Assembly: GCA_041389085.1 (NCBI GenBank)
Contig: JAWKSL010000001.1
Span: forward strand, 228,542-292,541
Source of the DNA: Minisyncoccota bacterium
Lineage (GTDB): Bacteria; Patescibacteriota; Minisyncoccia; UBA6257; 1-14-0-10-44-23
Length of the DNA: 64,000 bases
Reading direction: 5' to 3'
The notes below the pieces were generated by a model. It was not told the origin of the DNA, did no database searches, and worked only from the letters and a program-made list of their open reading frames with translations. This document shows positions 402-59,817 of this stretch, piece after piece; the stretch's first letter is position 1, and the number at the start of each line of letters is the position of its first letter. The translations under genes were made by a program, and so were the position numbers.

Positions 402-407
402 AGTAGA

Positions 408-1126: not shown

Positions 1127-1133
1127 TACATTT

Positions 1134-1987: not shown

Positions 1988-2009
1988 AGTGTGTGGAGGC
2001 TTGGGTTTT

Positions 2010-2038
2010 TTGACAAAAATTTCTTTTTGTTTTATTTT
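2010..2038 (+). promoter_or_regulatory. sigma70-like promoter of cassette A
   Basis: TTGACA at 2010, 17-nt spacer, then tatttt. Confidence 0.4.
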
Positions 2039-2083
2039 TGGATAGAGAAAAGTGCCTTAAAAGGCGCTAGAAAGGAGGCCTTG

Positions 2084-2317: not shown

Positions 2318-2330
2318 GCTCCCCGCCTGA

Positions 2331-2368
2331 CCCCAGCGACTCGTAGTCGCTGGGGTTCAACTTTTTTG
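2331..2368 (+). terminator. conserved terminator hairpin (family shared with 31590-31626)
   Basis: ccccagcgactcgtagtcgctgggg followed by ttcaacttttttg. Confidence 0.7.
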
Positions 2369-2398
2369 TCTTGTTACGTAGCAAGCTAGGTAACATGC
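2369..2398. repeat. palindromic element TTGTTACGTAGCAAGCTAGGTAACAT (cassette A 3' element)
   Basis: Matches 24 of 26 positions to the element at 44101-44126 (reverse complement), which also lies just past a terminator of a small peptide gene. Confidence 0.55.
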
Positions 2399-2519
2399 TC
2401 CTGAGCAATGTAAGGAGCAGCTCAAAGAACTAATCGGATCCCTCCCTCTGCACTATGCCAAGGCATAGCATGGAATGCTGGTGAGGGCTTTCTAAAATCT
2501 AAGATCGAAAATCTAGAAT

Positions 2520-5366: not shown

Positions 5367-5879
5367 GTGAAAGCTGCAATCCTTTGCCTTCTTGGCGCCC
5401 TTGTTGGCGTCTATCTCGTTGGTGTGCACGGCCTCCCTGCAACGAAGCTTGCGCACGTACTCGTGCTAGGAGGCATCGTCCTCGCGGCCGCTTTCTCTCT
5501 CCACTTTGCGACTCGTGCGAATTGCGGAGTGCCCATCTGCGACGATTCAGGCGATCCTCCGCTTGGCATTGTCGAGGTCGTTTCGGCTACGCGCGTTGAC
5601 TTTGATACTATGGGAGTCTTCATCAAGAAACCCAATGGAGAGTTTGATGAGCGCCTCTATCTTGAGGTGAATGAACGCTTGTTTGACCCCGCTATTAGTA
5701 AGTTCGCCCACCTTGAGTACCAGGCCCTACCCCACTCACTGACACCTCACTGGCGACGGCTTGCGCTCGTGAGCATCCCTGACGACCTCAGCACTGAGCC
5801 CATCGACTTTACTGAAGATGAGCCGGTGGCGCTCCCGCGGGCCGACAAGCCTCACGCTACCGCCCCTAAGGTGCCGTAG
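5367..5879 (+). CDS. hypothetical membrane-anchored protein, GC-rich (cassette C)
   Basis: GTG start preceded by ggagga; hydrophobic N-terminus; own terminator. No recognisable domain. Confidence 0.4.
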   Translation: MKAAILCLLGALVGVYLVGVHGLPATKLAHVLVLGGIVLAAAFSLHFATRANCGVPICDDSGDPPLGIVEVVSATRVDFDTMGVFIKKPNGEFDERLYLEVNERLFDPAISKFAHLEYQALPHSLTPHWRRLALVSIPDDLSTEPIDFTEDEPVALPRADKPHATAPKVP

Positions 5880-10234: not shown

Positions 10235-10424
10235 ATTTGATCTTTCAACATATAAAACGCCCGTTTCGTTGTGGGCTTGGATTAGATACTTAGCACTCGG
10301 AAGAGCTGGTTTCGGCTGGCCCTCTCCTCGGTTCTATTCTGGATTCTCTTTTTATAAGAGTCTTTTTAATCGGTATCCCCCCAGGTGCTGGTTGTGCCCA
10401 CAACGAAACGGGTGTTTTTATTTA
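10235..10424 (+). ncRNA. candidate structured sRNA (~190 nt) closed by a 23-bp stem plus U-tract
   Basis: 10254-10276 aaaacgcccgtttcgttgtgggc pairs with 10396-10418 gcccacaacgaaacgggtgtttt (one G.U), followed by tttatt. There is no ORF. The family is undetermined; 6S-like or SRP-like are possibilities. Confidence 0.3.
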
Positions 10425-12086
10425 CTCTAAAGGGCCGGTAACCTTCTCCAATTCGTCGAGAGTGCTCACTCCTGCAACTACTTTTAGCAGTCCATCTTGC
10501 TGAAGAGTGACGAGGCCATTTTCCTTCGCAAACTTTTGTATCTCTGCCTCGCCGGCATTTTTTTGTATAAGAAATTCTATCTCTTCTCCCATTTTTAATA
10601 TCTCGAATATACCTACTCTACCTCTGTAGCCTGTCTGTCCGCATGTAGCGCACCCCCCTTCCTTCGCTTTCATTACTCTTAGCGCCTCTGGTTTTTTAAC
10701 GCGCTCAGGCAGGGCTGCGATAATGGCTTTTACCTTCTCAATTCTTGGGTCGTTAGTAGCCTCTTCTTTGCAGTTTTCACAAATTTTTCTTATAAGGCGC
10801 TGAGCTATTACTATATTGAGCGCTGGGCCAATAGAGCTTACGGGCGCTCCAAGATTTATGAGGCGTGGAATAACCCCGCTTGCTGAGTTTGTGTGCAGTG
10901 TTGAAAAAACTAAATGGCCGGTAAGCGCCGCCTGCATAGCAGTGTTCGCTGTTTCGGTGTCGCGAATTTCTCCGACAAGAATCACGTCGGGGTCTTGGCG
11001 CATTATTGCCTCTAGCCCACTCGCAAAGGTGTAATTTTTTCTTTTATCTACCTGTGTTTGCTCTATGCGATCAAGGTGGTACTCGATTGGGTCTTCGATG
11101 GTAATGATTTTTATCTCTGAGCTCGCAATGGTTTTTAGAAATGCGTAAAGCGTAGTGGTTTTACCGCTTCCGGTAGGCCCAGTATTTAGAATCATGCCGT
11201 TTGGCCTTTTAATTTCCTGACTTAAAACCTCAAGGTCATCCTCTCTTAGCCCTAGGTCTTTTAATGTTAGTTGAATAACTCGTGGGTCGAGTATTCGCAG
11301 CACGAATGTTTCTCCAAACTCTGACGGAATAGCGCTTACACGAAGGTCGATAGCTGAGTCTCCTACTGAAAAACTAAACCTTCCGTCTTGTGATTTGTTT
11401 TGAACGTTTAGCCTAAGCCCTGATAGAAGCTTTATTCTGCTTACTACGAGCTTGTATGCGCCTTCCGTAAGCTCTGCGTTAATGTCTTGTAGCGCTCCGT
11501 CTACTCGGTAGCGCACTCTCGCTCCTCCCTTCTCTGCCTCAAAGTGAATGTCTGAGGCGCGAAGAGCTAGCGCTCCTGCCAATACAATCTCGAGCACTCT
11601 TCCGATTGATTTTGAATGAATAGCTGACTGTATGCTTTCTGCGATGTCTTCTCTGTTTTTGAATTTACTTGCAAACTCCTCAATTTGAGTATCGATCGCG
11701 TCCATGCGACCAGTCGATATGGTCTTCACCTTAGGCACAAACTTATAAAAGCTCCATGCGTAGACGAGGCTATCTTCTGATGCAAGGAAAATCTTTGCTC
11801 TGTAGCCCTGGCGCAGCAACTTTTGAACTGCAACTTTTGTTTCTTGCGTTGCAGGGTCTGCTGCGGCTACATACACCTCCTTATTTTTGCTTGCGAATGC
11901 AGCAACTTGGGCACTCTTTGCCTCTTGTTCTGGGATAAGAGCAAGGGCCTCGGTTGAGACTGGTAGTGAGTGAAGGTCTACATACCCACTATTCCCTCTT
12001 ACTGCCTGGGCTTTTGTAAGGCGCTCTTGGGAATTTTCCCAAGCCTTTTTAATTCGCTCGTTTATTTCGTTATTGTTTGAGAGCAT
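10422..12086 (-). CDS. pilB: type IV pilus/type II secretion assembly ATPase (PilB/GspE family)
   Basis: GPTGSGKTT Walker A and a C-terminal CxxC zinc tetracysteine. The ORF opens at 12335, but MLSNNNE at 12086 is the likely start because the extension overlaps yebC. Confidence 0.8.
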   Translation of the reverse strand: MLSNNNEINERIKKAWENSQERLTKAQAVRGNSGYVDLHSLPVSTEALALIPEQEAKSAQVAAFASKNKEVYVAAADPATQETKVAVQKLLRQGYRAKIFLASEDSLVYAWSFYKFVPKVKTISTGRMDAIDTQIEEFASKFKNREDIAESIQSAIHSKSIGRVLEIVLAGALALRASDIHFEAEKGGARVRYRVDGALQDINAELTEGAYKLVVSRIKLLSGLRLNVQNKSQDGRFSFSVGDSAIDLRVSAIPSEFGETFVLRILDPRVIQLTLKDLGLREDDLEVLSQEIKRPNGMILNTGPTGSGKTTTLYAFLKTIASSEIKIITIEDPIEYHLDRIEQTQVDKRKNYTFASGLEAIMRQDPDVILVGEIRDTETANTAMQAALTGHLVFSTLHTNSASGVIPRLINLGAPVSSIGPALNIVIAQRLIRKICENCKEEATNDPRIEKVKAIIAALPERVKKPEALRVMKAKEGGCATCGQTGYRGRVGIFEILKMGEEIEFLIQKNAGEAEIQKFAKENGLVTLQQDGLLKVVAGVSTLDELEKVTGPLE

Positions 12087-12141
12087 TGCAATAATTATAG
12101 CGGAATTGAAGCGGATGCGCTGGTTTGCTATGTTGGTACAT

Positions 12142-12669
12142 ATGGCTGGACACAATAAGTGGTCAAAAATCAAACATAAAAAAGCCGCTGCAGACTCAAA
12201 GCGTAGTGGTTTATTTTCTAAACATATTGCTGCAATATCGGTAGCAGCGCGTGAAGGCGCAAACCCAGAGACAAATGCAAAGCTCCGCGCTGTTATCGAC
12301 CGCGCAAAGGCGGCAAATGTTCCGAAGAGCAACATTGAGAGCGCTTTGTCTAAGGCTGGGGCCGAGAAAGATCTTGCCGAGCTTGTACTTGAAGCTTACG
12401 GACCTGCTGGGGTTGGAATTTTAATAAGCGTTATAACTGACAATACTAATCGCAGTATTTCTGAACTTAAAAAACTTATTGCGGATGCGGGTGGGAAGTT
12501 TGCCGACGTAGGAAGTGTGAAGTGGGCTTTTGAACAATCTCAAGACTATCAGTGGGTCGCAAAGTTCCCGCAGACAGTTGATGCTGCAGCTAAATCAGAC
12601 CTTGAAAGAATTGTTTCTGAGATAGAACAACACCCTGATGTTCAGGGTGTTGTAACAAGCGCTGCTTAG
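12142..12669 (+). CDS. yebC: YebC/PmpR family transcriptional regulator (short form)
   Basis: MAGHNKWSKIKHKKA start. At 175 aa it is shorter than the typical ~240 aa. Confidence 0.7.
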   Translation: MAGHNKWSKIKHKKAAADSKRSGLFSKHIAAISVAAREGANPETNAKLRAVIDRAKAANVPKSNIESALSKAGAEKDLAELVLEAYGPAGVGILISVITDNTNRSISELKKLIADAGGKFADVGSVKWAFEQSQDYQWVAKFPQTVDAAAKSDLERIVSEIEQHPDVQGVVTSAA

Positions 12670-15194: not shown

Positions 15195-15677
15195 CTAATT
15201 TTCTAGCTTCCTCGCTTTATACTCCATCGCTGATGCGATAGCAATAGCGACTGCGTCTGCAGTATTGTCTTCCTTAATTTCTTCTTTAAGGTTTAGAATT
15301 CTTGCTGTTATTTTAGAAACTGCTTTTTTATCTGCAGATCCATATCCGACTACAGTGCTTTTTACCTGCATCGGTGTTAGTTCAACAAGATTTTTTTGAA
15401 CACTGAGCGCTTGCGCTACTATTACTCCCCTTGCTTGAGCCACCTCGATAGCAGTTTTTTTATTTTTAGCGAAAAATAATTTTTCTACCCCAATTATATC
15501 TGGTTTGTATTCTTCGATTATTTTATTTATCTCGTTTTTAATTTCGAGAAGTTTATAGCTTGGATCTTTTTCTTTTATCTCTAAAAGCCCACAGTCTTCT
15601 AACGTAAATACCCCCTCATCTCTTACTAACGCATACCCTATTAGAGTACTTCCTGGATCTATACCAAGTACGCGCAT
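15195..15677 (-). CDS. ruvC: Holliday junction resolvase RuvC
   Basis: MRVLGIDPGS start. Confidence 0.85.
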   Translation of the reverse strand: MRVLGIDPGSTLIGYALVRDEGVFTLEDCGLLEIKEKDPSYKLLEIKNEINKIIEEYKPDIIGVEKLFFAKNKKTAIEVAQARGVIVAQALSVQKNLVELTPMQVKSTVVGYGSADKKAVSKITARILNLKEEIKEDNTADAVAIAIASAMEYKARKLEN

Positions 15678-15678
15678 C

Positions 15679-16788
15679 TTAGCTTTCAAGCGGCATTACG
15701 ATGTAAAACATTGAGTCGTCTCCTTGTGGTTTTATCATCGCTGGTTTTTGGGTTGAGTTTAGACTAAATACTATTTCTTCTTGTGAAATTGACTGAAGTC
15801 CTGCTAAAAGATAGCGCCAGTTAAAGGTTATTTCGTTTATATCTTTTCCTTCGCGCTTTACTGGGATTTTATAGTTATTTTCTCCAAGAGATTGAGTACT
15901 TGAATATATTTCTAGGAAATTTGTGTCTTCTTTTAGTGAAAGTTTCACCTCTGTTGTTTTCCCTGAAAAGCTACTTACTAGCCGCATAGCATTTATAAGC
16001 TCAGATCTGTCGATGTGGAGTGTTGTAGTGAAGTCTTTTGGAATTATTCCTTGATAGTCTGGGTACTCCCCACTAATTACGCGTGAGATAACACTACTAC
16101 TCTCTGACTCAAATAGAACTTGGTTTTCATCTTTCGCTATTGTTACCTCTTCGCTGTTTTCAAAAACTTTTATAACCTCATTTACTGTCATTAGAGGAAT
16201 AATCACTCTAAACCCTTCATCGAAAGTCGATTCAAAATCGGTATTGAGAAGGGTTTTTTCTGCGAGACGGAAGCTGTCGGTTGCTGCGAGCTTTAAAATT
16301 CCTATTTGATAGTCAAAAAGTATACCTGAGAGCTCTGGTTTAAGCTCTGAAATTTGCGCTGCGTTTATAACTTGTGAAATTGCTGACTTAAGAGTTTCTG
16401 TTTTTATCTTTATGTTTTTCTCGCGCTCCTCTATTTTAGGAATTATTGGAAACTCATCTGCTTTTAAGCCCTGAATCTTCGCTTCATAGTTATCGGTTTT
16501 CACATTTAAAACCTCTCCGTCTAGCTGGAGTGTTACTCTTTCTGACTGAGTGTTGTTTACGATGCTAAATAGTGGATGAAATGGAATTGTTATCTCCCCT
16601 GTTTCAACAACTTTGCATGCAGCTTTTGTTTTTATCGCGAGTTCAAGATTTGTACTCGTGATAGTAAGACTTTTATCTGCACTTAATAAAACATTTTTCA
16701 GTATTGGAAGGTTTGAATTTTGAGTTACTGCTCGTTCTGTTTTTATAAGAGCTGTTTTTAAATTGTCTTTAAGTATTATCAACTGCAT
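15679..16788 (-). CDS. dnaN: DNA polymerase III beta sliding clamp
   Basis: MQLIILKDNLKTALIKTERAVTQNSNLPIL... is a good match to DnaN N-terminus; 369 aa. Confidence 0.85.
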   Translation of the reverse strand: MQLIILKDNLKTALIKTERAVTQNSNLPILKNVLLSADKSLTITSTNLELAIKTKAACKVVETGEITIPFHPLFSIVNNTQSERVTLQLDGEVLNVKTDNYEAKIQGLKADEFPIIPKIEEREKNIKIKTETLKSAISQVINAAQISELKPELSGILFDYQIGILKLAATDSFRLAEKTLLNTDFESTFDEGFRVIIPLMTVNEVIKVFENSEEVTIAKDENQVLFESESSSVISRVISGEYPDYQGIIPKDFTTTLHIDRSELINAMRLVSSFSGKTTEVKLSLKEDTNFLEIYSSTQSLGENNYKIPVKREGKDINEITFNWRYLLAGLQSISQEEIVFSLNSTQKPAMIKPQGDDSMFYIVMPLES

Positions 16789-17011
16789 AGGTTTGGTTAT
16801 TTAAGTTAAAAAGAATAGTAGTTGTAGTAGGGCTTGTTAATTTGTGGATGAGTTAGTCGCAATGTTGATGAATACTAGTTTAAATTGCTGTTTGGGGTGT
16901 GGGTTTCTTGTGGGGAAAACCTTGGTGATTTTGTGAATAACTTTGGATGTTTTAATTTTCCTCCTTTTTTATCCCCACCACTATCCTCTCTATCAATAAT
17001 TTATACCCACC
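16789..17011. promoter_or_regulatory. candidate oriC segment (dnaA-dnaN intergenic) with DnaA-box-like 9-mers
   Basis: tgtggatga, ttatccccac and tgtgaataa are each 1-2 mismatches from TTATCCACA; an AT-rich tract (tatttaagttaaaaagaatag) is present. Confidence 0.5.
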
Positions 17012-18427
17012 TTATTCCTTGCCAATATGGTCTTTAATCAGCATTATCTTCTGATTTAAGACTTGGTTTTTCCCGACCTCTTTTGAAATCTTTTCATATG
17101 CATAAATTGCTGTTGTGTGGTCTCTTTTACCCATTTTTTCACCAATAGCTGGGTAACTAAGGTTTAGTAGGTCGCGAAGAAGGTACATAGCTATCTGACG
17201 AGGCTCTACAACCTCCTTTTTTCTACTCTGGCCGGTGATGTCGGTGAGAGACATATCAAAAGACTCAGCCACCGCTTTAATAAGGGCTTGAGGAGAGATG
17301 TTTTTAGTAGGTTCTTGAACTATTTCGTTGATAATTTCTTCCGCTATCTTCGGACTTATCTTGGTGTTTTTTATGTTTTGGTAAAAAGTGAGTCTGTTTA
17401 TCACCCCTTCAAGCTCTCGGAAGTTCTTCTGAATACGATTTGCGATAACCTGCACTACCTCATCAGAAAGATTTACCTGTTTTTCATCAAGCTTAGCTTT
17501 AAGAATTGCAAAACGAAGCTCGTAGTCTGGTGGAGCTATATCTACAATCATTCCCCCTTCGAATCGTGAGCGAAGACGCTCAGCGAGATCGGGCATAAAC
17601 TTCGGCGGCTTATCAGAAGATATGATTATCTGCTTATTGTTCTCGTAAAGGGCGTTAAAAGTGTGGAAAAATTCCTCCTCAGTTGAAGCCTTACCCATAA
17701 TAAACTGGATATCGTCGATTATAAGGAGGTCTACAAGGCGATATTTTTCTTTCATAGTGTCCATTCGCTTGTTACGAATAGCCCAAATAACGTCGTTAGT
17801 GAATTTTTCACTCGAAACATAACGAACCCTTACTGTATTGTTGTATTTTTTCTTAATCGCGTTACCAACGCCTTGAATAAGGTGGGTTTTCCCAAGCCCT
17901 ACTCCCCCGTAAATAAAGAGCGGGTTGTATTTTGTACCCACATTATCTACAACAGCGCTCGCTGCCGCGTGGCTGAGCTCATTTGCCTTTCCAACCACAA
18001 AAGAATCGAGTGTATAACGCGGATTGAGGTTTGTTTCTGGGTCGATTTTAAACTCAGGGAAGGCTTGTTGGTTGGCGCTTACTACTTGCTTAGCCTCTTT
18101 TGCTCTCTTCGCCTTAATTCTTTGTGCAAGTTTTGAGCTATGAACTACAAACTCGATTTTTGTGATCGTTCCATCGAGATTTCTTAGTGCTGCAAAAACA
18201 ATTTTTGAATATTTGTTTTCAATCCACTCCTTCGCAAAGGTGTTTGGGAGGGCAACAAACCCACAGTTATCTTTTTTCTCAATAAGTTGGGTGTTTTTAA
18301 ACCACGTAACAAAGTTTGGTTTAGAGATTTGCATTTCAATCTCAGCAAGCGCCTGATCCCACAACCCATTTAGGTCGGTGAGCTCTTTCTCTGCTGTTGT
18401 CTGGGCGCTTGTCTGTTTTGGTGACAT
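17012..18427 (-). CDS. dnaA: chromosomal replication initiator DnaA
   Basis: GGVGLGKTHL Walker A and a C-terminal DNA-binding domain. Confidence 0.9.
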   Translation of the reverse strand: MSPKQTSAQTTAEKELTDLNGLWDQALAEIEMQISKPNFVTWFKNTQLIEKKDNCGFVALPNTFAKEWIENKYSKIVFAALRNLDGTITKIEFVVHSSKLAQRIKAKRAKEAKQVVSANQQAFPEFKIDPETNLNPRYTLDSFVVGKANELSHAAASAVVDNVGTKYNPLFIYGGVGLGKTHLIQGVGNAIKKKYNNTVRVRYVSSEKFTNDVIWAIRNKRMDTMKEKYRLVDLLIIDDIQFIMGKASTEEEFFHTFNALYENNKQIIISSDKPPKFMPDLAERLRSRFEGGMIVDIAPPDYELRFAILKAKLDEKQVNLSDEVVQVIANRIQKNFRELEGVINRLTFYQNIKNTKISPKIAEEIINEIVQEPTKNISPQALIKAVAESFDMSLTDITGQSRKKEVVEPRQIAMYLLRDLLNLSYPAIGEKMGKRDHTTAIYAYEKISKEVGKNQVLNQKIMLIKDHIGKE

Positions 18428-18598
18428 TGAAATGGTGTTGGTTTTAGCTAGTATGCCTTTGATTCTAATGAAATAGCAAGGGGGGTGTAAAACACTAAAG
18501 TTCGGACAATCTGTGAGTAAGCTGTGGAAAACATTTTAACACTTCTTCTCGACTTGAAAAAATTCGGAATACCTTGTATAGTTTGGGAAATTCAAATT
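18428..18598. promoter_or_regulatory. dnaA upstream / rpmH promoter region with a DnaA-box-like motif
   Basis: ctgtggaaaac (reverse complement ttttccacag). Divergent dnaA and rpmH promoters are expected here. Confidence 0.4.
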
Positions 18599-18733
18599 TA
18601 TGAGTCAGACATACAACCCAAAGAAGCGTAAAAGGGCTCGAACTCACGGTTTTCGCAAGCGAAACAGCACTAGCAATGGTAAAAAGGTAATTGCGCGCCG
18701 CCGTGCAAAAGGTAGAAAGCGAGTTACTGTATA
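18599..18733 (+). CDS. rpmH: 50S ribosomal protein L34
   Basis: [21 protein letters not shown]...; 44 aa, below the ORF-track length cutoff. Confidence 0.85.
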
Positions 18734-18739
18734 AAGCCC

Positions 18740-19060
18740 ATGTTGGCGAAGAAATACCGACTTCCAGTTCAATCCACCCTTAAAAAGAGGGCAGAGACGA
18801 CAGCGCGAGGACGGTATTTTTTGATTAAAAAATACAAAGCTTCTCACTCCTATGCTCGGATAGCCTTTGTGGTATCCACAAAGGTCTCTAAAAAAGCTGT
18901 TGAGAGGAACAGGGTGCGCCGTGCTTTGTATAGCGCAGCAGGTACGGTTCTTGATTCCGTTAAGGTATTTGATTATGTTGTTATAGCCTCCCCTACCATG
19001 CCTAGTCTTTGCGAAGAAGGTGAGAGTGCTATAGTTAATGAACTTAAAAAACTACTATAA
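18740..19060 (+). CDS. rnpA: RNase P protein component
   Basis: Position after rpmH; basic 106-aa protein. Confidence 0.7.
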   Translation: MLAKKYRLPVQSTLKKRAETTARGRYFLIKKYKASHSYARIAFVVSTKVSKKAVERNRVRRALYSAAGTVLDSVKVFDYVVIASPTMPSLCEEGESAIVNELKKLL

Positions 19061-19752
19061 TGAGCAATTTATTTCACATACTACTTATTCAGCCGCTATT
19101 TAACGCCCTTATTGGCTTTTACAACACCATCGCTTTTAGAGACATGGGGCTTGCTATCATCCTTCTCACTATTGCGGTGAGATTTGTGCTTTATCCCCTC
19201 TTTTACCATGGGCTTAAAAATCAGGCGATGATGCAGAAAATTCAGCCTCATATAGAAGAAATACAAAAGAAGCATAAGGACGATAAGGAGAAGCAGGCGC
19301 TTGAGATGATGGCGCTTTGGAAAGAGCATAAAGTAAACCCTTTTTCAGGGTTTCTCCTTCTTCTCGTACAGCTCCCGATAATTCTTGCTATCTACCGCGT
19401 GTTTCTTGATGGAGTGAGTGAAAAGGCTCTCGAAGGACTCTACTCCTTTGTTTCAGCGCCTGAGGTGCTCAACAATACCTTCTTGGGCGTCGTAGACCTT
19501 AGTTCAAAAAGCATGATTATAGTGGTTTTGGCTACCGCGGCAGCCTATATTCAGGGCAGAATGGCCATACCAAAAGGTAATAGTAAGAGTGCTGAGATAG
19601 GGAAAAAGATGAGCCTTATTGCTCCGGCTATAATTCTTGTAATTTTACTAAACTTTTCAAGCGCGATCGGATTGTATATTCTTACTACAACGGTCTTCTC
19701 TATATTCCAGCAGGCCGTTATAAACAAGAAGATACATGGATCTACAGCTTAA
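19060..19752 (+). CDS. yidC: membrane protein insertase YidC (short Oxa1-like form)
   Basis: Multi-TM protein in the conserved rnpA-yidC context; 230 aa. Confidence 0.8.
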   Translation: MSNLFHILLIQPLFNALIGFYNTIAFRDMGLAIILLTIAVRFVLYPLFYHGLKNQAMMQKIQPHIEEIQKKHKDDKEKQALEMMALWKEHKVNPFSGFLLLLVQLPIILAIYRVFLDGVSEKALEGLYSFVSAPEVLNNTFLGVVDLSSKSMIIVVLATAAAYIQGRMAIPKGNSKSAEIGKKMSLIAPAIILVILLNFSSAIGLYILTTTVFSIFQQAVINKKIHGSTA

Positions 19753-20167
19753 AGACTTTATAGAGGGAATAGTGACACGAATGGGCTTTGCAGACGCCCA
19801 GGTTAGCGTTGATGAAGAAGGCCGAAGAATATCAGTTATTATCGACGATGGTGACTGGGTGGCGAAAAAAGTTCCCGACCTTGTTTCTGCCCTTCGACAG
19901 CTTACACGAGGGCTTGCGCGAAAGAATTCACTCGAGAATTACTTTATCGACATAAACAACTACAAGAAGGAAAGAGAGCGTCTCATTGTTGAGATAGGCC
20001 AGGCGGGTGCAAAGAAGGCAGTATTTGAAAAAGTAGAAGTGGCCCTGCCAGCAATGAACTCTTACGAAAGAAGGCTTGTACACGCAGACCTGTCTATGAG
20101 GCCCGATGTAAAGACTGAGAGCGCCGGAGAGGGCAAAGAAAGACACATAATAATAAAACCGCTGTAA
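19736..20167 (+). CDS. jag: Jag/KhpB-like KH/R3H RNA-binding protein
   Basis: Position after yidC, with a C-terminal R3H-like region. Confidence 0.65.
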   Translation: MDLQLKDFIEGIVTRMGFADAQVSVDEEGRRISVIIDDGDWVAKKVPDLVSALRQLTRGLARKNSLENYFIDINNYKKERERLIVEIGQAGAKKAVFEKVEVALPAMNSYERRLVHADLSMRPDVKTESAGEGKERHIIIKPL

Positions 20168-20195: not shown

Positions 20196-21371
20196 TTAGT
20201 CTACCCAGGTTGTTATTCCCCCACTCTCTTTTATCTGATTGTAGGCTGTCTCTGTTTGATCCGAGCCATTACTGTATTGAGAAAACATCTGGTCTCTTCC
20301 CGCGAGATACCCAGCGCGCGACTGCTCTACCCATGGATGTGCAGTGTTGTCTGCTAAGTAACTTCTCTGTTCTATTTCAATGAGTTGGCGGGCCACCTGT
20401 TGAGGGGTTTCATTATTGCCCTGTGTTACCACTTCATTTACCACTCCCTCTCTCCTCATTTGGTAAAATTGCTGCTCGGCATACTCATTGAATCCTGTTG
20501 GGTATTCGCTGTTCGCCTCCTGCCATGAGATGTATCCATCTGCTTGGTAGGAAATACGGTTTCCTTCGCTAAAGTTGTATGGGTTTTGATAGTTTCCTGT
20601 ATCGAGGGCGCTTATTCTCTCGGAAAAATAATGAGCTCGAAGAGCGGGATATTGGTTGAATAGAGCTTCTTGCGCTGCGGCAAACGCTGCATAATTTTCT
20701 GAAGAGAGAATTGTAGACTCATCTCTTAGCATTCGTCGTGCGGCTTGAAGCGCCCTACGGTCATCGTTGAGGTTGAACTCGTGTTTATAGCCATTTATAT
20801 ATGACTCTGTTTGGTTCGCTTGTCTGCTCGCCTGTGAGTTTTGTATAGCTTCTAGCTCGGCATCTCTTGCCTCAGCATTTCTTTGCTCTCGCATAGCCTC
20901 GAGCTCACGAATTGGTTCATCTGAGCTCCCAATGTTTAATATGCGCGGATTAATAGTGTAAAGAAGCACAGCAGCTCCAATAAGAAGCACAAGGCCAATA
21001 ATAGCGTCGAATATCCACCCCTTTGCGTCTGCCTGCACAGCTGGCTTCCCTGCTGAAGCTACGTAGCGCACTCCGGCAAAAACAATAATCGCGAGAGCTA
21101 AAAGAGCTCCGATGCCAATAGCCCAGCGATAGATAATGTTTATGTAGTTTCCTAGTCCTTGATGTGCATTTACCGAACCACCTGTTCCTGGAATGTCTAC
21201 AATTAGGTCTACGGTTCCGTCTGGGGTAGTTTTTGCGGCGGCGTCTACAGCGTCAGCATTTGCTTCTTGTGGTGTGGCCTCATCCTCAGCAGAAACACTC
21301 GCCGTGAGTGGGGCTAGTGCGATTAGTCCTGCAAAAAGCGCAGCGAAGAATGTCTTAGTTTTTAGGCTCAT
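20196..21371 (-). CDS. secreted VirB2/TrbC-pilin-like domain fused to a ~240-aa Q/N/Y-rich C-terminal domain
   Basis: A signal peptide is followed by two hydrophobic helices (YINIIYRWAIGIGALLALAIIVFAGV and WIFDAIIGLVLLIGAAVLLY), as in conjugative pilins. The family is not certain. Confidence 0.4.
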   Translation of the reverse strand: MSLKTKTFFAALFAGLIALAPLTASVSAEDEATPQEANADAVDAAAKTTPDGTVDLIVDIPGTGGSVNAHQGLGNYINIIYRWAIGIGALLALAIIVFAGVRYVASAGKPAVQADAKGWIFDAIIGLVLLIGAAVLLYTINPRILNIGSSDEPIRELEAMREQRNAEARDAELEAIQNSQASRQANQTESYINGYKHEFNLNDDRRALQAARRMLRDESTILSSENYAAFAAAQEALFNQYPALRAHYFSERISALDTGNYQNPYNFSEGNRISYQADGYISWQEANSEYPTGFNEYAEQQFYQMRREGVVNEVVTQGNNETPQQVARQLIEIEQRSYLADNTAHPWVEQSRAGYLAGRDQMFSQYSNGSDQTETAYNQIKESGGITTWVD

Positions 21372-31163: not shown

Positions 31164-31243
31164 AAGAGTTTAGAGATAAGAGTTACGACGTAAGAATAGC
31201 TCATAACGAAGCCTAAAGGCAAAACTTTGCGTTGCTCTAGAGT

Positions 31244-31265
31244 TAACTCTAGAGCTTAATATAGA
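31244..31265. repeat. perfect 22-bp palindrome gctctagagttaactctagagc (cassette B 5' element)
   Basis: Homologous to 1954-1987, including upstream context (aaggcaaa...ttgctctagag). Confidence 0.6.
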
Positions 31266-31300
31266 GCAGTAGTGCGCGAAGAGTTATTTCTTGACAATAA

Positions 31301-31329
31301 GGCTAATTTATTTTATTCTCTTGGCAGAG
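31301..31329 (+). promoter_or_regulatory. sigma70-like promoter of cassette B
   Basis: TTGACA, 17-nt spacer, tattct. Confidence 0.45.
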
Positions 31330-31356
31330 CGATGGTGCTCTTGAGGAGGTGTTGGG

Positions 31357-31605
31357 ATGTTCCGATCCACCACCTATTTGCTTCTCCTCGGCTTCTCTCT
31401 TGTTGGAGGGGCTGCGGTCATGACAGCTCTTCTGATGGTCAGCCTTGCGCTGACCGCGCACCTGCCGCCATGGCTTGAACTCGCGGCTCGCCTCGCGCTG
31501 GTTTTCTCAGTGCTGCGCTGGGCAGGCCCGGCCCTCGGGAGGCTTCTCATTCCGATGTTCCGAGCTTACATTTCAGCTCGGAACGCCAACCCTAGCGACT
31601 TGTAG
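31357..31605 (+). CDS. small (82 aa) membrane protein, GC-rich (cassette B), weak paralog of 2084-2317
   Basis: SD gaggagg; hydrophobic; shares an AHxPPWL motif with the cassette A protein. Confidence 0.5.
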   Translation: MFRSTTYLLLLGFSLVGGAAVMTALLMVSLALTAHLPPWLELAARLALVFSVLRWAGPALGRLLIPMFRAYISARNANPSDL

Positions 31606-31626
31606 TCGCTGGGGTTCAACTTTTCT
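31590..31626 (+). terminator. conserved terminator hairpin (~90% identical to 2331-2368)
   Basis: ccctagcgacttgtagtcgctgggg followed by ttcaactttt. Confidence 0.7.
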
Positions 31627-35020: not shown

Positions 35021-35284
35021 ATGAACGCAGTCCCTGTGAGTTTGAAGTGGCTGAAGGTGCGCCTTGCGGTGCTTGAAACAGGCGAGCTTTTGGCCTGGTA
35101 CACCGGTCTGGTTGTGCTTGCCGCCGCATTCTTCCAAGCCATGATGTACGGCCTTTGGCCTTACTTCTACCTCTGGTTCGCTGCAGGGGCTCTGTGGTGG
35201 ATCGGGAAGGGGCTTGGGGCGCGCGCAGACGCTTTGCGTCACATTGTGCGCCCTGAGCTCAACGCAGGCGCCAGTCGAAGATGA
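35021..35284 (+). CDS. small (87 aa) membrane protein, GC-rich (cassette E)
   Basis: SD aaggagg sits 6 nt upstream of ATG (MNAVPV); W/L/A-rich TM helices. The stop codon lies inside the terminator hairpin. Confidence 0.45.
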   Translation: MNAVPVSLKWLKVRLAVLETGELLAWYTGLVVLAAAFFQAMMYGLWPYFYLWFAAGALWWIGKGLGARADALRHIVRPELNAGASRR

Positions 35285-37593: not shown

Positions 37594-37806
37594 TCAGGGG
37601 AAGGCAACGAGATCGTCGTCGCTTGCATGCCCTGCACGCTTCGTACGCTCCGCAAGCTCGTTGATGTCGGTCTTCTTGAAGACCATCTGGCCTCCGTCTC
37701 TGAAGGCGCGGATCTCCCCTTCCGTAACGAGGCGCTTGAGGCGATTCTCGTCGATACCGAGCACTTCCATTGTCTCGTCAAAGCTGTAGTAGGCGGACCC
37801 TTCCAT
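37594..37806 (-). CDS. small HTH DNA-binding protein (excisionase/MerR-like), GC-rich
   Basis: METLGIDENRLKRLVTEGEIRAF helix-turn-helix; 70 aa. Confidence 0.5.
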   Translation of the reverse strand: MEGSAYYSFDETMEVLGIDENRLKRLVTEGEIRAFRDGGQMVFKKTDINELAERTKRAGHASDDDLVAFP

Positions 37807-42993: not shown

Positions 42994-43215
42994 ATTGTTT
43001 TCTTCGCGATCTCTTTGCCTACTCGCCTAATTCCTTCGCTTTGCTCAGGATTTGGGCGGGTTATTTCACTGCGTGAAATAAAAAACAAACCTTCTGTTAA
43101 TTGTAATAAGATCTTCCGGCAGTAGGTTTGTTTAAGACTGGTCGGAAGCTCTTTAAAAGGTAGATAAATACTAGGTTAAATGCGCCTTTTGGTCAAGGCG
43201 TGTTAATATCGTTAT

Positions 43216-44100
43216 ATGAAAACACTACAGGAGGCCCTTGCATGGGCTAGTGAGAAGAAAGTAGCTATTGGGCACTTTAACGTAGCGAACATCGAAGCCC
43301 TCAAAGCTATATTTGAAGCGGCTCAGGAACTATCGACTGAAGCTGGGTTTAAAATTCCGGTAATCATTGGTCTTTCTGAGGGAGAGAGAAAGTTTGTCGG
43401 CGAGCACGCAGCAGTTGCGCTTATAAAACACATGCGCGAGCGCTACGACTACCCTATTTTCCTCAACGCTGACCACACGTATGACGATGAAATGGCGAAG
43501 GAAGCGGTACGTGCTGGATACGACAGCGTGATAATCGATGGGGCAAACCTTTCTTACGACGAAAACCTAGAAAAGACGAAGCGATTTGTAGAGTTTGCTC
43601 GCACACAAAACCCAGATTGTTTGGTAGAGGCTGAAGTTGGCTACATCGGTAGCGGGTCAAATATAAAAGAGGCTCTTCCTGAGGGTGCGGCTATAACTGA
43701 AGATACGGTAACTAAAGTTGATGAAGCGGTGCGCTTTGTAAATAAAACTGGCGTAGACTTGCTCGCTCCTGCAGTTGGGAACATTCATGGAATGCTGAAG
43801 GGGGCTAAGAACCCAAACCTTATAATTTCGCGCATTAAGGAAATAGCTGAAGCTACTGGGAAGCCACTCGTGCTTCACGGAGGAAGTGGGATTTCAGACG
43901 AAGACTTTAGTGCTGCTATCGAAGCTGGTATACGCATCGTGCACATTTCTACAGAACTTCGACGTGCATATAAAGAAGCTTTGGATGCATCTCTTGCCGC
44001 TTCCCCTTCTGAGCTTGCGCCGTACAAGATAATGGCGCCTGTAGTAGATGCTATGAAAGCTGTTGTAACAGCACGGCTTAAACTTTTTACGAATTTGTAG
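43216..44100 (+). CDS. fba: class II fructose-bisphosphate aldolase
   Basis: IGHFNVANIEALKAI...LHGGSGISDED. Confidence 0.8.
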   Translation: MKTLQEALAWASEKKVAIGHFNVANIEALKAIFEAAQELSTEAGFKIPVIIGLSEGERKFVGEHAAVALIKHMRERYDYPIFLNADHTYDDEMAKEAVRAGYDSVIIDGANLSYDENLEKTKRFVEFARTQNPDCLVEAEVGYIGSGSNIKEALPEGAAITEDTVTKVDEAVRFVNKTGVDLLAPAVGNIHGMLKGAKNPNLIISRIKEIAEATGKPLVLHGGSGISDEDFSAAIEAGIRIVHISTELRRAYKEALDASLAASPSELAPYKIMAPVVDAMKAVVTARLKLFTNL

Positions 44101-44126
44101 TTGTTACGTAGCTTGCTACGTAACAA
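44101..44126. repeat. perfect 26-bp palindrome ttgttacgtagcttgctacgtaacaa
   Basis: Same element as 2369-2398; lies just past the terminator of the minus-strand mini-gene. Confidence 0.55.
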
Positions 44127-44127
44127 G

Positions 44128-44160
44128 AAGTGAAGAGGCGCGACTCAGGGAGAGTCGCGC
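44128..44160. terminator. bidirectional terminator (fba on +, mini-gene on -)
   Basis: ggcgcgactcagggagagtcgcgcc followed by tttcg. Confidence 0.55.
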
Positions 44161-44303
44161 CTTTCGCGTGTGAGGCTGTCGCCGCTTACGAAGAAGAGAA
44201 GGGCGGCAGTGAAGGCAGCTACGAGGAGCCCGACCCACCACAGGCCAGTTCCCTTTGCGACTCCGAAACCAAGCGCAGATCCGATGATGAGGTCGCAGTG
44301 CAT
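44145..44303 (-). CDS. unannotated 52-aa hydrophobic mini-protein, GC-rich (cassette D)
   Basis: Perfect SD aggagg sits 5 nt upstream of ATG. Sequence MHCDLIIGSALGFGVAKGTGLWWVGLLVAAFTAALLFFVSGDSLTRERRDSP. A TTGACC promoter lies upstream; the stop codon is inside the terminator hairpin. Confidence 0.45.
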   Translation of the reverse strand: MHCDLIIGSALGFGVAKGTGLWWVGLLVAAFTAALLFFVSGDSLTRERRDSP

Positions 44304-44390
44304 GGGGCCTCCTTTTACTATTATTCAGCCAGCTTTTTTGCCTCTGGTCAATACTTTTAAACCTGCCGTAATTTAACTACACTAGCTTTA

Positions 44391-44837
44391 ATGATTAGTT
44401 TGATTGTTGCGATGGACAAGGAGCGATGCATTGGCAAGAACGGTTCTTTGCCGTGGCATCTTCGCGCTGATTTGCAGCGCTTAAAAGATATAACTACTGG
44501 GAACGCAATTATTATGGGGCGCGCAACTTTTGAATCGATTGGTAAGGCGCTGCCAAATCGGCAAAACATTGTTCTTACCTCTGATAAGAACTTTTCTTTT
44601 CCTGGTGTTGAGGTTGCAAATTCTCTCCAGGAGGCTTTTGGGCTTGTGGAAGATGGCCGGGAGGCAATTGTGTTTGGCGGAGCTTCTGTCTATGAAGCTG
44701 CGCTGCCGCAGGTTGCCGTCGACATCGTAACGCCAAAAGTCGAGCTATGCGAAGTGGAAACTTTTAGCATGATCAAACCAGACGTTGTTGTAATTTCTCA
44801 ATCAACAAAAGCACACGACAGGAGAAACAGTTGCTGA
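44391..44837 (+). CDS. folA: dihydrofolate reductase
   Basis: MISLIVAMDKERCIGKNGSLPWHL...TTGNAIIMGRATFESIG. Confidence 0.8.
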   Translation: MISLIVAMDKERCIGKNGSLPWHLRADLQRLKDITTGNAIIMGRATFESIGKALPNRQNIVLTSDKNFSFPGVEVANSLQEAFGLVEDGREAIVFGGASVYEAALPQVAVDIVTPKVELCEVETFSMIKPDVVVISQSTKAHDRRNSC

Positions 44838-45375
44838 TCTGGGAAGGTTTCAGGTGCTGAAGTTGCTTGTTTTCAAAACCACAAGCGACTACTTCAACAA
44901 TTGCAAAGCTTCGTCTTATGCAGATTTCTACTGCAAAGAAGTTACGGAAACACTTCCACAAAAGATGGCTCAGCTCATTGAAGAGCTGGCGGGCGGAGAA
45001 GTTTCTAAGAGCCGAAAAAAGAAATGAAAATAGTTCTTTGCTACTTGCCAGTTTTGCACGAAGAAGAATTATTATCAGTTTCAAAACCTACAAAGACACT
45101 GGTATTTGTATTCTTGGGGAAAACTTTTTTGAAGACAAGCCTCTTTCAAGGAGCATCCCCGCGCACTCGGCCTGTTTTAGCTAAAAAAGCTCTTAAAGGC
45201 TGGGCAATCTTCCCAGCAGTGCGCATAGTCGAAAAAGCCGACGTGCTAAACCTTGATAAAGAAGGGGCTCTGATAGTAATGCCAAACGATGAGTTGTGAG
45301 TGACGCGATCTTACGACTTCTGAGCTCAACTTTCCTTCGACTCTATCTTTTTGCGTTGGGATAAGCACCGCGCTA

Positions 45376-45837
45376 TGGAAATGAAACCAGTAGAAGTTGA
45401 CCAAACGCTTTCAGCTGAAGATTTCCTGCGTGGATTCTTTCAAGTTTAAAAATGAAGCAGAAGAAAAAGGCTCTAAGACATTTGGCGCCGCATTGGTGCG
45501 GCGATCGTGAAGAGACGGTGAAATTGTTTCGCAACGTACAATAAGCATGTACCAAGTGAGCACGCCCATTTAGCCTCTGGTGATCCGAAATAATTTTCAA
45601 AGGAGTTTGCGTTGAACTCTCTGTTTTTGCATGCAGAGTCTGCATGTTGCGCAGGCTGCCAAAAATGGAGTTTCTCTTGAGGGTGCAGACATGTATCTGG
45701 CGGGTGTTTCCTTGCCGCCCTGCGCTAAGGGCTGTTGCTTATTCGGGCGTAAAGACACTACTCCTGGTGGGTACAGAGTTCTCAGCAGTGCTGACATACT
45801 CAAGGCTCAAGGAGTGGAAATAATATACGTAGGCTAG
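45376..45837 (+). pseudogene. dCMP deaminase (ComEB-like) pseudogene, frameshifted
   Basis: Pieces in different frames: FGAALVRRS (VGAVIV-like), then an intact C-terminal half in-frame, ...GADMYLAGVSLPPCAKGC (PCxxC zinc motif). Confidence 0.5.
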
Positions 45838-47056
45838 ATTCGTAAATGAGAAAGGCGCGCAACACTTGCGCAGCCAATCGCGCCTTTCACGTGCTAACCG
45901 TTAGGCCTTCTTCATCCTGCCCTCGAGCAGCTGGAGCTCTTCTTGTAGTGGGCGCATGACTGCTTCAACGGCTCAGTGCTGCCGCCACGCTGAGCTCGTA
46001 AGGCGTCTCGGAAGACCTCTACGAGGCTCCTTTCTCCTCGAGCTTCTCACGGCGTCTGCCTTGAAGAGAGGCAGACGCCTCTGCGCTGCCATTCGGCACG
46101 AGCACGTTCTGTGTCACAGGTGGCGGATGGTGCCTGCGATCGAGGCGCACGGATCAGCCGAAGCGCATGAGCGAACCACCACCAGGAAGGTTGATGCCCT
46201 TGATGAACCCTCCACTCATCATCTGCCTCCGGGAAGGTGCCGATCCCTCTCCAGTGGCTCGGCTCCACCAGGGGCCGAGTCAGTCTTGTGTTCACGGGGA
46301 GCCATGACCGGTGGCGGCAGTACCCTTCGCTGGGTAGAGTTGGCCCAGAAGCTCTCCATCCGGAGTGCTCGACGAACACGCCTTGTTCTTCTCGGGGTCG
46401 AGGTTGCAGAAGGGCACTCTCCTGCCTGCAGCATGTTGCGCATGGCAACAGTACTGGGTAGCATGAAAGTACTTGCAGCGCAGCGGTCTTCATGATCCTG
46501 TGGTTGAAATTCGCAGCTCTTGGGGTGCACGAGATTATCCTCGCTGGGGTTCCTAGTTCTTGGGTTCTTCTCGGTTTTCAACTATTTTCCCCGCTGTAGT
46601 CAAGCAGCTGCACGAGTTTTTACCTTGACTGACTGGTGGTTTGGCTGAAATCTACGTTTCCTTGTAGAAGTTGTGCGTGTATGTGCTTTACACTTCGCCG
46701 GTGTATTTTGTGTTTAAAGCGGACAAATGAAGGAGCACTACTTCCCCTGTGTTGTCCTGCGAGCCACTGCCAGTGCCTTCCGAAACTCTTCAAATTCCTG
46801 GCAAGGCCAGTTCACTGATATGCTCGGCGTGTCTTTTAAAATAAGGATGAAATGATTTGCTTTGTTCCTTCGTATGGCTTGCTGGTTTTTGTCGTAAGCC
46901 AGAGTCTCCTTCTTTGAGAATTGGTTCTTTGTGGTACTTATCCTAGGCTTTCTTTACAGAAAGGGCAATTGTCGTCTTCTACTATTTGCTGCATCACTTT
47001 TTTCTGCTCGTCGATGCGTGAATTTCAAATCTGCAAGTGTTTCTTTCGCTCATATT

Positions 47057-59520: not shown

Positions 59521-59532
59521 TGTAAACCATAA

Positions 59533-59583
59533 ATCAAAAACACGACGCAAGGTCGTGTCTCTGATTTTGTCGGGCCGCCGGGA
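59533..59583. repeat. 51-bp direct repeat copy 1 (tRNA-Pro 3' end + terminator hairpin)
   Basis: atcaaaaacacgacgcaaggtcgtgtctctgattttgtcgggccgccggga is identical to 59710-59760. Confidence 0.8.
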
Positions 59584-59709
59584 CGCTTCGCTATCTCACT
59601 CTCTGAAAACCCACGGTTTTCCAGCGCATGCTTCGCGTGCTGCCTTCCTACACGGGGAACTTCCGTTCCCCGACCCCCTCCCGTCCGATTCCCGGCCCGT
59701 ACTTTAGTA

Positions 59710-59760
59710 ATCAAAAACACGACGCAAGGTCGTGTCTCTGATTTTGTCGGGCCGCCGGGA
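59710..59760. repeat. 51-bp direct repeat copy 2 (includes the genuine tRNA-Pro 3' end and its terminator)
   Basis: Perfect match to 59533-59583. Confidence 0.8.
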
Positions 59761-59817
59761 ATCGAACCCGGGCCGCACGCTCCCAAAGCGCGCATACTAC
59801 CATTATACGACGGCCCG
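59747..59817 (-). tRNA. tRNA-Pro (TGG)
   Basis: Manual cloverleaf: anticodon loop UUUGGGA, T-loop TTCGATT; the D-stem is imperfect. Confidence 0.7.

Follow-up and report, generated by a model that had tools for sequence, protein, structure and literature searches.

A GC-rich candidate membrane-peptide gene next to one copy of a dispersed 26-nt palindrome in the fba-folA spacer of a Minisyncoccota bacterium

The fba-folA spacer and orfB

The spacer between fba and folA in the genome of a Minisyncoccota bacterium (GenBank assembly GCA_041389085.1, contig JAWKSL010000001.1) holds two small features side by side: a short open reading frame (ORF) on the minus strand, here called orfB, and a 26-nucleotide (nt) palindrome, TTGTTACGTAGC-AA-GCTACGTAACAA. 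The stretch of DNA that was analysed, called the window hereafter, comprises 64,000 nt (positions 228,542 to 292,541 of the forward strand of the contig), and all positions are counted from its first letter. On the basis of the letters alone, the original prediction had combined the two features into a cassette (cassette B) of the same modular family as a second small gene of the window (cassette A), the palindrome being the module at the 3′ end. The explanation that we regard as reasonably probable is a different one, namely that two unrelated things have come to lie side by side: a foreign mini-gene, orfB, and a palindrome occurring across the candidate phyla radiation (CPR), which would be bound by an AbrB-like protein. 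Here, we describe the locus and the evidence on each of its two parts, together with the alternatives.

The layout of the spacer is compact (Table 1). The palindrome begins at the base after the stop codon of fba. Transcription of orfB faces the 3′ end of fba, and the palindrome lies ten bases beyond the orfB hairpin. As predicted, an antisense ORF of 52 amino acids (aa) is present in the spacer, and it is preceded by a Shine-Dalgarno (SD) sequence from which the ATG is separated by four bases. The other signals are less regular than had been proposed. Both elements of the predicted promoter exist, and both hexamers are kept in the only relative found, but their spacing is non-canonical: the distance from TTGACC is 20 nt if AATAAT is taken, or 17 nt if the poor CTGAAT is taken. 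The TGA stop codon (44145-44147) does fall within a hairpin, at the boundary between the loop and the 3′ arm, but the tails of this hairpin, TCTTCACTTC on the minus strand and TTTCGCG on the plus strand, contain no real U-tract. The hairpin is therefore terminator-like but not a canonical terminator. The GC content of orfB is 61% and that at third codon positions (GC3) is 0.68, and an ORF of 76 aa overlaps it on the opposite strand.

Table 1. Positions of the features of the fba-folA spacer and of the GC-rich genes in the window (TM, transmembrane)
Feature	Position	Strand	Remarks
fba	43216-44100	+	
26-nt palindrome, TTGTTACGTAGCAAGCTACGTAACAA	44101-44126		perfect 12-nt arms
Hairpin, GGCGCGACTC-TCCCT-GAGTCGCGCC	44137-44161	-	10-bp stem, 5-nt loop, GC-rich
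orfB	44145-44303	-	52 codons (both strands read); protein MHCDLIIGSALGFGVAKGTGLWWVGLLVAAFTAALLFFVSGDSLTRERRDSP
SD sequence of orfB, AAAGGAGG	44308-44315	-	ATG four bases on
Promoter-like region of orfB	44320-44351	-	TTGACC (44346-44351) and TGAATAAT (44320-44327); spacing non-canonical
folA	44391-44837	+	
HD-domain gene	428-1096		GC-rich gene
34-nt perfect palindrome, GCTCTAGAGCTAACTCTAGAGTTAGCTCTAGAGC	1954-1987		5′ edge of cassette A; common to D, not B
Cassette A ORF	2084-2317	+	77-aa orphan TM protein, GC-rich, SD AAGGAGG; terminator 2329-2357
Second 26-nt palindrome copy, TTGTTACGTAGCAAGCTAGGTAACAT	2371-2396		degenerate, 24/26 identical to 44101-44126
orf5367-5879	5367-5879		170 aa, membrane-anchored; GC-rich gene
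Cassette D	31190-31624	+	paralogue of A; without 26-nt palindrome
Cassette D palindrome, CTCTAGAG	31234-31255		in 5′ region shared with A
Cassette D ORF	31357-31605	+	82 aa, TM; AH..PPWL shared with A
Cassette D terminator	31589-31624		94% identical to that of A
Cassette C	35021-35284	+	87-aa GC-rich TM ORF, SD AAGGAGG, own terminator; without palindrome
Cassette E	37594-37806	-	70-aa GC-rich ORF, SD and terminator; Pfam HTH_17 (excisionase-type); without palindrome

Is orfB a gene? In a codon-usage log-odds model for which the other GC-rich genes served as the training set, the orfB frame tops all six frames with +14.3 bits, and the opposite-strand ORF, which has no SD sequence, reaches +6.3. 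When the same test was applied to those genes with one left out at a time, the annotated frame scored best for the HD-domain gene, orf5367-5879 and cassettes A, C and D. A homology search for the peptide, which had been proposed as a check, was run against 5.8 billion proteins and yielded a single relative, P0001, which is 98% identical and is encoded on a Logan contig, L001, with the same gene order as the window (S1-fba-orfB-folA). The frame is intact in L001, and the three changes are two synonymous ones and one K-to-R replacement. Apart from P0001, no homologue of the peptide was found. When 1.84 billion representatives were searched exhaustively with HMMER, only P0001 and one low-complexity match came up; exact look-ups of the 52-aa peptide, fba, S20 and the DksA-like protein in public assemblies gave no entry; Pfam, NCBIfam and PHROGs contained no family for the proteins of cassettes A, B, C or D; and cassette B had no blastn match in collections of phages and plasmids. 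Relatives of fba in metagenomes were also searched for fba-folA spacers free of the cassette, and the best was 59% identical, with none having folA or S1 adjoining.

Three results tell against a protein-coding orfB. There is a single relative, and just three substitutions separate the two sequences, which leaves the proposed synonymous/nonsynonymous comparison with too little power to reveal coding selection. The synonymous divergence (dS) of orfB is 0.05, as against 0.27-0.47 in fba, S1, ugd and the NYN gene, so that its synonymous sites are about sevenfold more conserved, which would be less expected of an ordinary protein gene than of constraint at the nucleotide level or of a recent transfer. 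Finally, a promoter and terminator scan of both strands between 43900 and 44600 called no promoter-like site, and it did not call the orfB hairpin either. The same conservation at the nucleotide level is in line with an alternative in which orfB is untranslated and the GC-rich segment of 230 nt is a structured noncoding RNA, or a cis-antisense/terminator complex for fba and folA. In favour of this alternative, the RNA fold has a z-score of -3.4, with the SD sequence paired with a downstream GCCUUC, the peptide has no known relatives but one, and ORFs arise easily at 61% GC, as on the other strand here. However, high conservation of a spacer is not peculiar to this segment, because the window and L001 also agree at about 96% in the noncoding region 5′ of fba, and the z-score owes much to the terminal hairpin and the palindrome. 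In addition to the codon usage of its frame, orfB has a perfect SD sequence at the right distance from the ATG where SD cores are rare, and its architecture equals that of five other mini-genes, one of them with a Pfam domain. Rfam gave only tRNAs at the gathering score and nothing credible on cassettes B and A even at E ≤ 5. An untranslated segment thus seems unlikely, and orfB is quite probably a real gene for a small membrane peptide.

The original prediction had described the product as a TM peptide of the double-glycine-zipper type. A zipper pattern, G8xxxG12xxxA16xxxG20, can indeed be read in the peptide, in which a glycine-zipper-like N-terminal part is followed by a TM helix (about residues 21-39) and by a tail with charges at the C-terminus. 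On the other hand, the AlphaFold model from the single sequence has one long helix (residues 4-49, pLDDT 74, most confident at 21-40) and no hairpin. The product would most likely be a single-pass membrane peptide of the glycine-zipper type with a charged cytoplasmic tail, and our best guess is that it may act as a small accessory or toxin-like membrane peptide.

A peptide of this kind brings type I toxin-antitoxin systems to mind. Like Hok, TisB, Ldr and Fst, the orfB peptide is short (below 60 aa) with one hydrophobic helix and a charged C-terminus, and its gene is lineage-restricted and intergenic with a promoter-like region and a hairpin of its own. It could be supposed that cassette B, and perhaps A and D, are systems of this type, in which the antisense RNA is provided by read-through from fba or pyrG: three of the four TM mini-genes are antisense to co-directional flanking genes, orfB is among several similar mini-genes, and its nucleotide-level conservation and the predicted sequestration of its SD sequence would also fit. 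However, the peptide has no similarity to known families, no known toxin family was found in Pfam, NCBIfam or PHROGs, and no antisense RNA gene was identified; the scan between 43900 and 44600 found no antisense promoter, so that only read-through from fba could supply the antisense RNA. Moreover, the 5′ untranslated region is short, unlike those of hok or aapA-type mRNAs, and cassette E, which belongs to the same class, encodes a soluble helix-turn-helix protein. A type I toxin-antitoxin system is very unlikely on these grounds.

The 26-nt palindrome and an AbrB-like protein

The palindrome was sought as an exact pattern in GTDB with one genome per species, and at least 117 stretches in at least 60 assemblies were found; the counts out of 117 given below are among the matches listed. 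The consensus is TTGTTACGTAGC-WW-GCTACGTAACAA, which can also be written TACGTAGCWWGCTACGTA, with the core TACGTAGCATGCTACGTA. Most of the listed copies are perfect palindromes of 26 nt with an AT centre, and in about 14 loci extra half-sites (GCTACGTAACAA) occur at an exact 12-nt period. The credibly named assemblies are all Patescibacteria, including Moran-, Falkow-, Buchanan-, Campbell-, Kaiser- and Staskawiczbacteria, Paceibacteria, UBA bins and one single-cell genome. Some third-party 'binchicken' bins bear other names, and these labels were treated as unreliable because several such bins share orthologous flanks with named CPR bins. The GC content of the loci ranges from 28 to 63% and the flanks are unrelated between sites. 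Outside crude ORFs lie 81% of the listed sites, as compared with 21% of random positions, and no common theme was found among the genes downstream of the listed sites. The palindrome is sparse: there are two copies in the 64-kb window, other CPR contigs contain a single one in 403 kb and, among the matches listed, no metagenome-assembled genome has more than nine. It was not found in 2.9 million viral contigs. A literature search for the motif by sequence string and by topic gave only matches to RACE primers and unrelated papers.

According to the original prediction, the palindrome should travel with small ORFs of the orfB type. This did not hold. A convergent small hydrophobic ORF adjoins 9 of the 117 listed sites, as against 5.6% of random positions; more than 90% of the listed sites have no small hydrophobic ORF beside them, and elevated GC of the flanks was not seen at the palindromes of other genomes. 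Judged from these sequence comparisons, the palindrome appears to be an element independent of the mini-genes, the spacer holding one copy of a Patescibacteria-wide DNA word.

The copies inside genes are instructive. Most of the 22 listed sites within ORFs leave the ORF unbroken: the palindrome read in frame gives LLRSMLRN(K), or CYVA(C/S)YVT in a second open frame, and the third frame has TAG stops. It occurs at the same codon position in miaA of four genomes (L064, L087, L106 and L010), in prmC of three (L031, L046 and L112), in murG of two (L093 and L006) and in MTAP of two (L003 and L088). It is likewise read in frame at orthologous positions in Mur ligases (L007 and L069), and further in-frame cases are a GT4 glycosyltransferase (L042 and L019) and a PFOR-like gene; L027 and L022 are also among the loci with an in-frame copy. 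The 60-nt flanks of these copies are only 52-66% identical in miaA, prmC and murG, and 87-90% identical in the MTAP pair, which is closely related. The informative point is not the exactness of the core but this recurrence at orthologous positions of diverged genes. In a motif-free miaA (L036), the protein reads IIRKKLEKL where the palindrome-bearing orthologues read (V/L)LRSMLRNK; the length is equal within one residue (a single one-residue gap), and the DNA matches the palindrome at 11 of 26 positions. Since this gene has the same length with unrelated DNA, the copies in genes would be replacements at a compatible amphipathic helix rather than insertions, as far as this one comparison goes. 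Such replacements point to a DNA word under selection or biased conversion, of which parS and uptake sequences are examples, and not to a transposing repeat. Similar helical stretches of the LRxxL type are presumably present at these positions in the other host proteins, judging from the E. coli and human sequences.

What could read such a word? A protein of 51-54 aa with the consensus MEKYIRKVTRVGKRSLSIVIPAEIVDELKIREKQKL....G..I.I.DWK is encoded in 13 of the 117 listed 8-kb blocks around a palindrome, where about 0.9 would be expected by chance, and in all 13 a full or partial palindrome with the core lies 8-90 nt 5′ of its ATG. Four further loci were picked from the protein side, and all of them have the motif or tandem half-sites upstream, the motif abutting TATAAT in one (L201). 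Thus, in 17 of 17 loci, all in other genomes, the motif or tandem half-sites are found 8-100 nt upstream of the ATG. The family comprises at least 241 clusters at 90% identity, and the sources name its members as AbrB/MazE/SpoVT proteins from Patescibacteria. The protein matches Pfam PF04014 (MazE_antitoxin, E = 7e-7), and the profile of the family aligns over its full length with the AbrB N-domain (1z0r/1yfb, E = 0.006). The AF2 model has a beta-beta-alpha-beta-beta fold, for which the top Foldseek matches are MazE, AbrB, SpoVT and VapB, with weak E-values for this very small domain. It is a bare DNA-binding domain, having neither a toxin-binding tail nor a conserved toxin neighbour. At one locus (L199, 10001-10177, P0024), gene callers run the ORF into the palindrome, giving an N-terminus MLRNKK..., and several 58-aa database entries are probably mis-started versions of the same protein of 51-52 aa.

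The palindrome is most likely the cognate DNA site of this AbrB-like protein, as its genomic placement suggests. The position of the motif just upstream of the gene for the protein implies autoregulation, and the conservation of a 26-bp word letter for letter in at least 60 assemblies at 28-63% GC, including orthologous codons of essential genes with flanks of only about 55% identity, implies a conserved trans-acting reader. The AbrB-like gene, the palindrome or both are often found at restriction-modification (RM) or defence islands (L199, L203, L204/L205, L020, L101 and L004), and three of the four loci picked from the protein side lie in such islands. The neighbours there include Mrr, SocA/Panacea, Zeta, Fic, PIF1, DinD and PD-(D/E)XK proteins. 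The motif or its half-sites are upstream of hsdM of type I RM systems in three genomes (L020, L101 and L199), and at L004 the palindrome is 17 nt from the gene for a large serine recombinase.

Other kinds of dispersed palindromes have to be compared. It could be a selfish or structural repeat, like repetitive extragenic palindromes (REP) with their associated transposases (RAYT) or Rickettsia palindromic elements (RPE), or else a chromosome-handling site like parS, Ter or an uptake sequence (USS/DUS). Being short, dispersed, mostly intergenic, in frame within some ORFs and without a theme among its neighbours, the palindrome resembles these elements, and its core GTAGCATGCTAC starts with GTAG as do the GTAG-tagged REPs treated in PMC3733652. 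However, two copies in 64 kb are far from the hundreds of copies of REP, the same word is shared across phyla by genomes of 28-63% GC and is not species-specific, and no RAYT turned up in the loci, which were not searched systematically for it. RPEs are much longer than 26 bp, and the palindrome, in the comparison with the motif-free miaA, causes no change in length, the copies in genes being replacements and not insertions. Like USS/DUS, it occurs in frame at permissive positions and also next to terminators, but it is about 100-fold sparser than these (about one per kb) and is shared by very divergent lineages. Its absence from the viral contigs also argues against a selfish repeat or a site of these kinds.

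The likeness to parS/ParB, Tus-Ter and RTP-Ter is closer, in that there is a handful of palindromic sites per genome, tolerated in coding sequence, with the gene for the binding protein adjoining one copy; the tus and rtp genes also adjoin one of about ten sites. In addition, the two palindromes of the window flank oriC at 16 and 26 kb. The origin is placed by the presence of dnaA, dnaN and rnpA-yidC-jag and by the GC-skew minimum: in the region 15195-20167, ruvC, dnaN and dnaA are on the minus strand, rnpA, yidC and jag (R3H) diverge on the plus strand, a stretch is AT-rich (36% GC), and the cumulative GC skew has its minimum at about 16 kb. Nevertheless, dnaA is present in only 1 of the 117 listed blocks (L005), and two sites lie 563 kb apart on one 1.3-Mb contig, so that parS-like clustering near the origin is unsupported elsewhere. 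The palindrome differs from the parS consensus, TGTTNCACGTGAAACA; only its outer TGTTAC/GTAACA is similar to the outer part of parS. Ter sites are polar while the palindrome is symmetric, and a fork barrier of the symmetric kind would do harm at a distance of 16-26 kb from oriC. The partner of the palindrome is AbrB-like rather than ParB, Tus or RTP, and none of these models accounts for the AbrB-like gene that goes with the motif in 17 of 17 loci. We therefore consider a repeat or a chromosome-handling site of the known kinds quite improbable as the whole explanation, and a site of the AbrB-like protein remains the reading that we follow.

GC-rich mini-genes of the window

A fine-scale GC scan of the window, the GC content of which is 45%, revealed short islands at 57-65% GC. 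Several of these are single small genes with their own SD sequence and hairpin, scattered singly in intergenic spacers (Table 1). The GC3 of the mini-genes, cassette E not included, is about 0.61-0.69, as against 0.41-0.48 in native or housekeeping genes. An SD core precedes any candidate start in only 3 of 38 long ORFs, as compared with 6 of 6 GC-rich mini-genes. The native genes thus seem to start translation mostly without an SD sequence, while the genome hosts foreign SD-bearing genes. From their composition, the mini-genes look like horizontally acquired accessory genes, and the match of cassette E to HTH_17 shows that a GC-rich mini-gene can be a real gene in this genome. orfB is probably a lineage-specific, horizontally acquired mini-gene of this class and a real orphan, because, in a nearly SD-free genome, it belongs to a set of at least six mini-genes that are GC-rich, have an SD sequence and carry their own terminator.

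Within this class, cassettes A and D are true paralogues. They share a 5′ region of about 100 nt (78% identity) with GCTCTAGAG(Y)TAACTCTAGAG palindromes, as well as the ACCCYAGCGACTYGTAGTCGCTGGGGTTCAAC terminator; their ORFs have otherwise diverged beyond the AH..PPWL motif. The CTCTAGAG palindrome was not found in any of the fetched loci or in viral contigs, and a profile of the A and D proteins found no homologue among 5.8 billion proteins. The ends of the two cassettes (1910-2365 and 31190-31624) are far better conserved than the ORFs between them, which is suggestive of exchangeable cargo or constrained ends.

Does orfB belong with them? The predicted element behind the terminator of cassette A was verified at 2371-2396, and a 24/26 match to the copy beside fba is not expected by chance (zero in shuffles). 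It lies 14 nt past the terminator of cassette A and 124 nt past the 3′ end of pyrG, and one of its mismatches hits the conserved TACGTA core in the right arm. Each of the two cassettes also has a strong SD sequence, as claimed, but this is merely a generic strong SD. Beyond this and the palindrome they have nothing in common: cassette B contains neither the CTCTAGAG palindrome region nor the ACCCYAGCGACTYGTAGTCGCTGGGGTTCAAC terminator of A and D, and the 26-nt palindrome is missing from D, the paralogue of A. A single modular family of A and B therefore finds no support.

The model behind that claim, in which A and B form one cassette family with the palindrome as its 3′ module, for example as an attC-like capture site, nevertheless has several observations in its favour. 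In the window, each palindrome is found 10-14 nt past the terminator hairpin of a mini-gene that is GC-rich and has an SD sequence. Since mini-genes of this sort occupy about 7 of about 60 spacers, two out of two would arise by chance with a probability of roughly 1-2%, according to a rough estimate. Elsewhere, the palindrome or the AbrB gene is often near mobile or defence genes, as at the serine recombinase gene (L004), hsdM and the RM islands. Integron cassettes are likewise small, hold one gene each and have a palindromic element on their 3′ side. However, D, C and E have no palindrome, more than nine-tenths of the listed sites have no adjoining small hydrophobic ORF and no raised flank GC, and the in-frame copies in miaA, prmC and murG have no foreign DNA alongside. 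Unlike integron cassettes, the mini-genes have their own promoter, SD sequence and terminator and are single rather than arrayed; no integron integrase or attI was seen, no integrase adjoins either window site, and the 26-nt palindrome occurs mostly without cassettes. We give this model little credence. In a weaker form, the palindromes beside cassettes may be a capture point for foreign DNA or a mark of it, which we also consider of low probability.

Some other features of the window may be mentioned here. Between S1 and fba, the spacer is 129 nt longer in L001 (4250-4600) than in the window (42994-43215), and its 150 nt adjoining fba are about 96% identical between the two, above the synonymous sites of the flanking genes. 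On the other side, folA of the window diverges from L001 after 44715. In L001, thyA, dcd and a dCMP deaminase gene are found 3′ of folA (1-3077); in the window, about 800 nt within 44838-46600 have no good ORF, dCMP deaminase is represented by no more than a fragment similar to its C-terminus (45631-45837), and an island of 650 nt at 45846-46500 has 61-65% GC and ORFs on both strands with no Pfam match. The region downstream of folA looks like the result of gene loss or replacement. A perfect direct repeat of 52 nt is present at 59532-59583 and 59709-59760, 177 nt apart, and its second copy overlaps the 3′ end of a tRNA-Pro gene (59746-59817, minus strand); this would be an att-like duplication, as is typical where integration takes place at a tRNA gene, or else a local tandem duplication. 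Near the origin, genes for a T4SS-pilin-domain protein and a PilB/T2SSE ATPase (20196-21371 and 10422-12335) are consistent with a surface or competence apparatus of the CPR type.

Possible role of the palindrome and its significance

The nearest known systems are the autoregulated repressors of the AbrB/MazE type with palindromic operators. The AbrB-like protein resembles AbrB, MazE and SpoVT (for example, the N-domain of Bacillus subtilis AbrB, or E. coli MazE acting on the mazEF promoter) in its PF04014 match, its AbrB-N profile and its fold matches, and, as with autoregulated antitoxins, its own gene is closely preceded by a palindromic site. It differs in being a bare domain with no toxin-binding tail and no conserved toxin neighbour. 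The site differs as well, since it is 26 bp long, nearly invariant across the radiation, dispersed and kept in housekeeping genes; to our knowledge, AbrB has no clear consensus site.

A possible mechanism can be outlined as follows. The stand-alone 52-aa protein of the AbrB-N (swapped-hairpin) type would bind the palindrome and regulate its own gene. On the sites of the window it would act in trans from elsewhere in the genome, because it is not encoded in the 64 kb. If the organism makes the protein, a bound dimer or tetramer could act as a transcriptional roadblock or insulator between a housekeeping gene and the foreign mini-gene. Both copies in the window sit at converging units, fba facing orfB in one case and the cassette A ORF (orfA) facing pyrG in the other, beyond hairpins with poor U-tracts. 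The TTGTT of the palindrome often forms part of the T-tail at sites next to terminators. The sequences themselves show that the palindrome is associated with the AbrB-like gene and that its DNA is constrained. The role as a roadblock is a conjecture, because the dispersed sites have no significant preference of context and only marginal adjacency to terminators.

Several observations weigh against the proposed site of an AbrB-like protein or against its insulating role. The numbers of sites in tandem, convergent and divergent spacers are 52, 18 and 7, close to the length-weighted expectation of 53, 13 and 10.5 (p = 0.2). A terminator hairpin abuts 17 of the 117 listed sites as against 8.6% of controls, a marginal enrichment. 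The palindromes within genes are hard to square with a simple insulator, and the position of both window palindromes beside foreign-looking cassettes, which may not be due to chance, is not accounted for by this reading. By tblastn, the AbrB-like gene was found neither in the window nor in L001. In addition, the loci came from an exact-match search, which accounts for part of the exactness of their motif, and the copy numbers and taxonomic limits are lower bounds. A preference for convergent junctions (18 versus 7) was also considered and rejected, as it is not significant against the length-weighted control (p = 0.11 to 0.2).

What would the two parts of the locus mean? orfB alone is one more orphan small membrane protein, and its value lies mainly in its being part of a clear-cut class of foreign genes; the palindrome matters more than the peptide. 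Tentatively, and from sequence comparison, the palindrome with its core and the AbrB-N protein may constitute a Patescibacteria-wide pair of cis and trans elements, in which the word is selected at a handful of positions per genome and would serve as a roadblock, an insulator or a chromosome-organising signal, possibly marking or silencing acquired DNA. If this is true, the selected positions would fall in frame within essential genes (miaA, prmC, murG and those for Mur ligases), at the edges of RM and defence islands and, in this window, at those of foreign mini-genes. Hardly any experiments have addressed how Patescibacteria regulate their genes or organise their chromosome. A protein paired with a known site could offer an entry point to the global DNA transactions of this radiation and, in practice, might provide an operator/repressor part for the emerging genetics of Patescibacteria.

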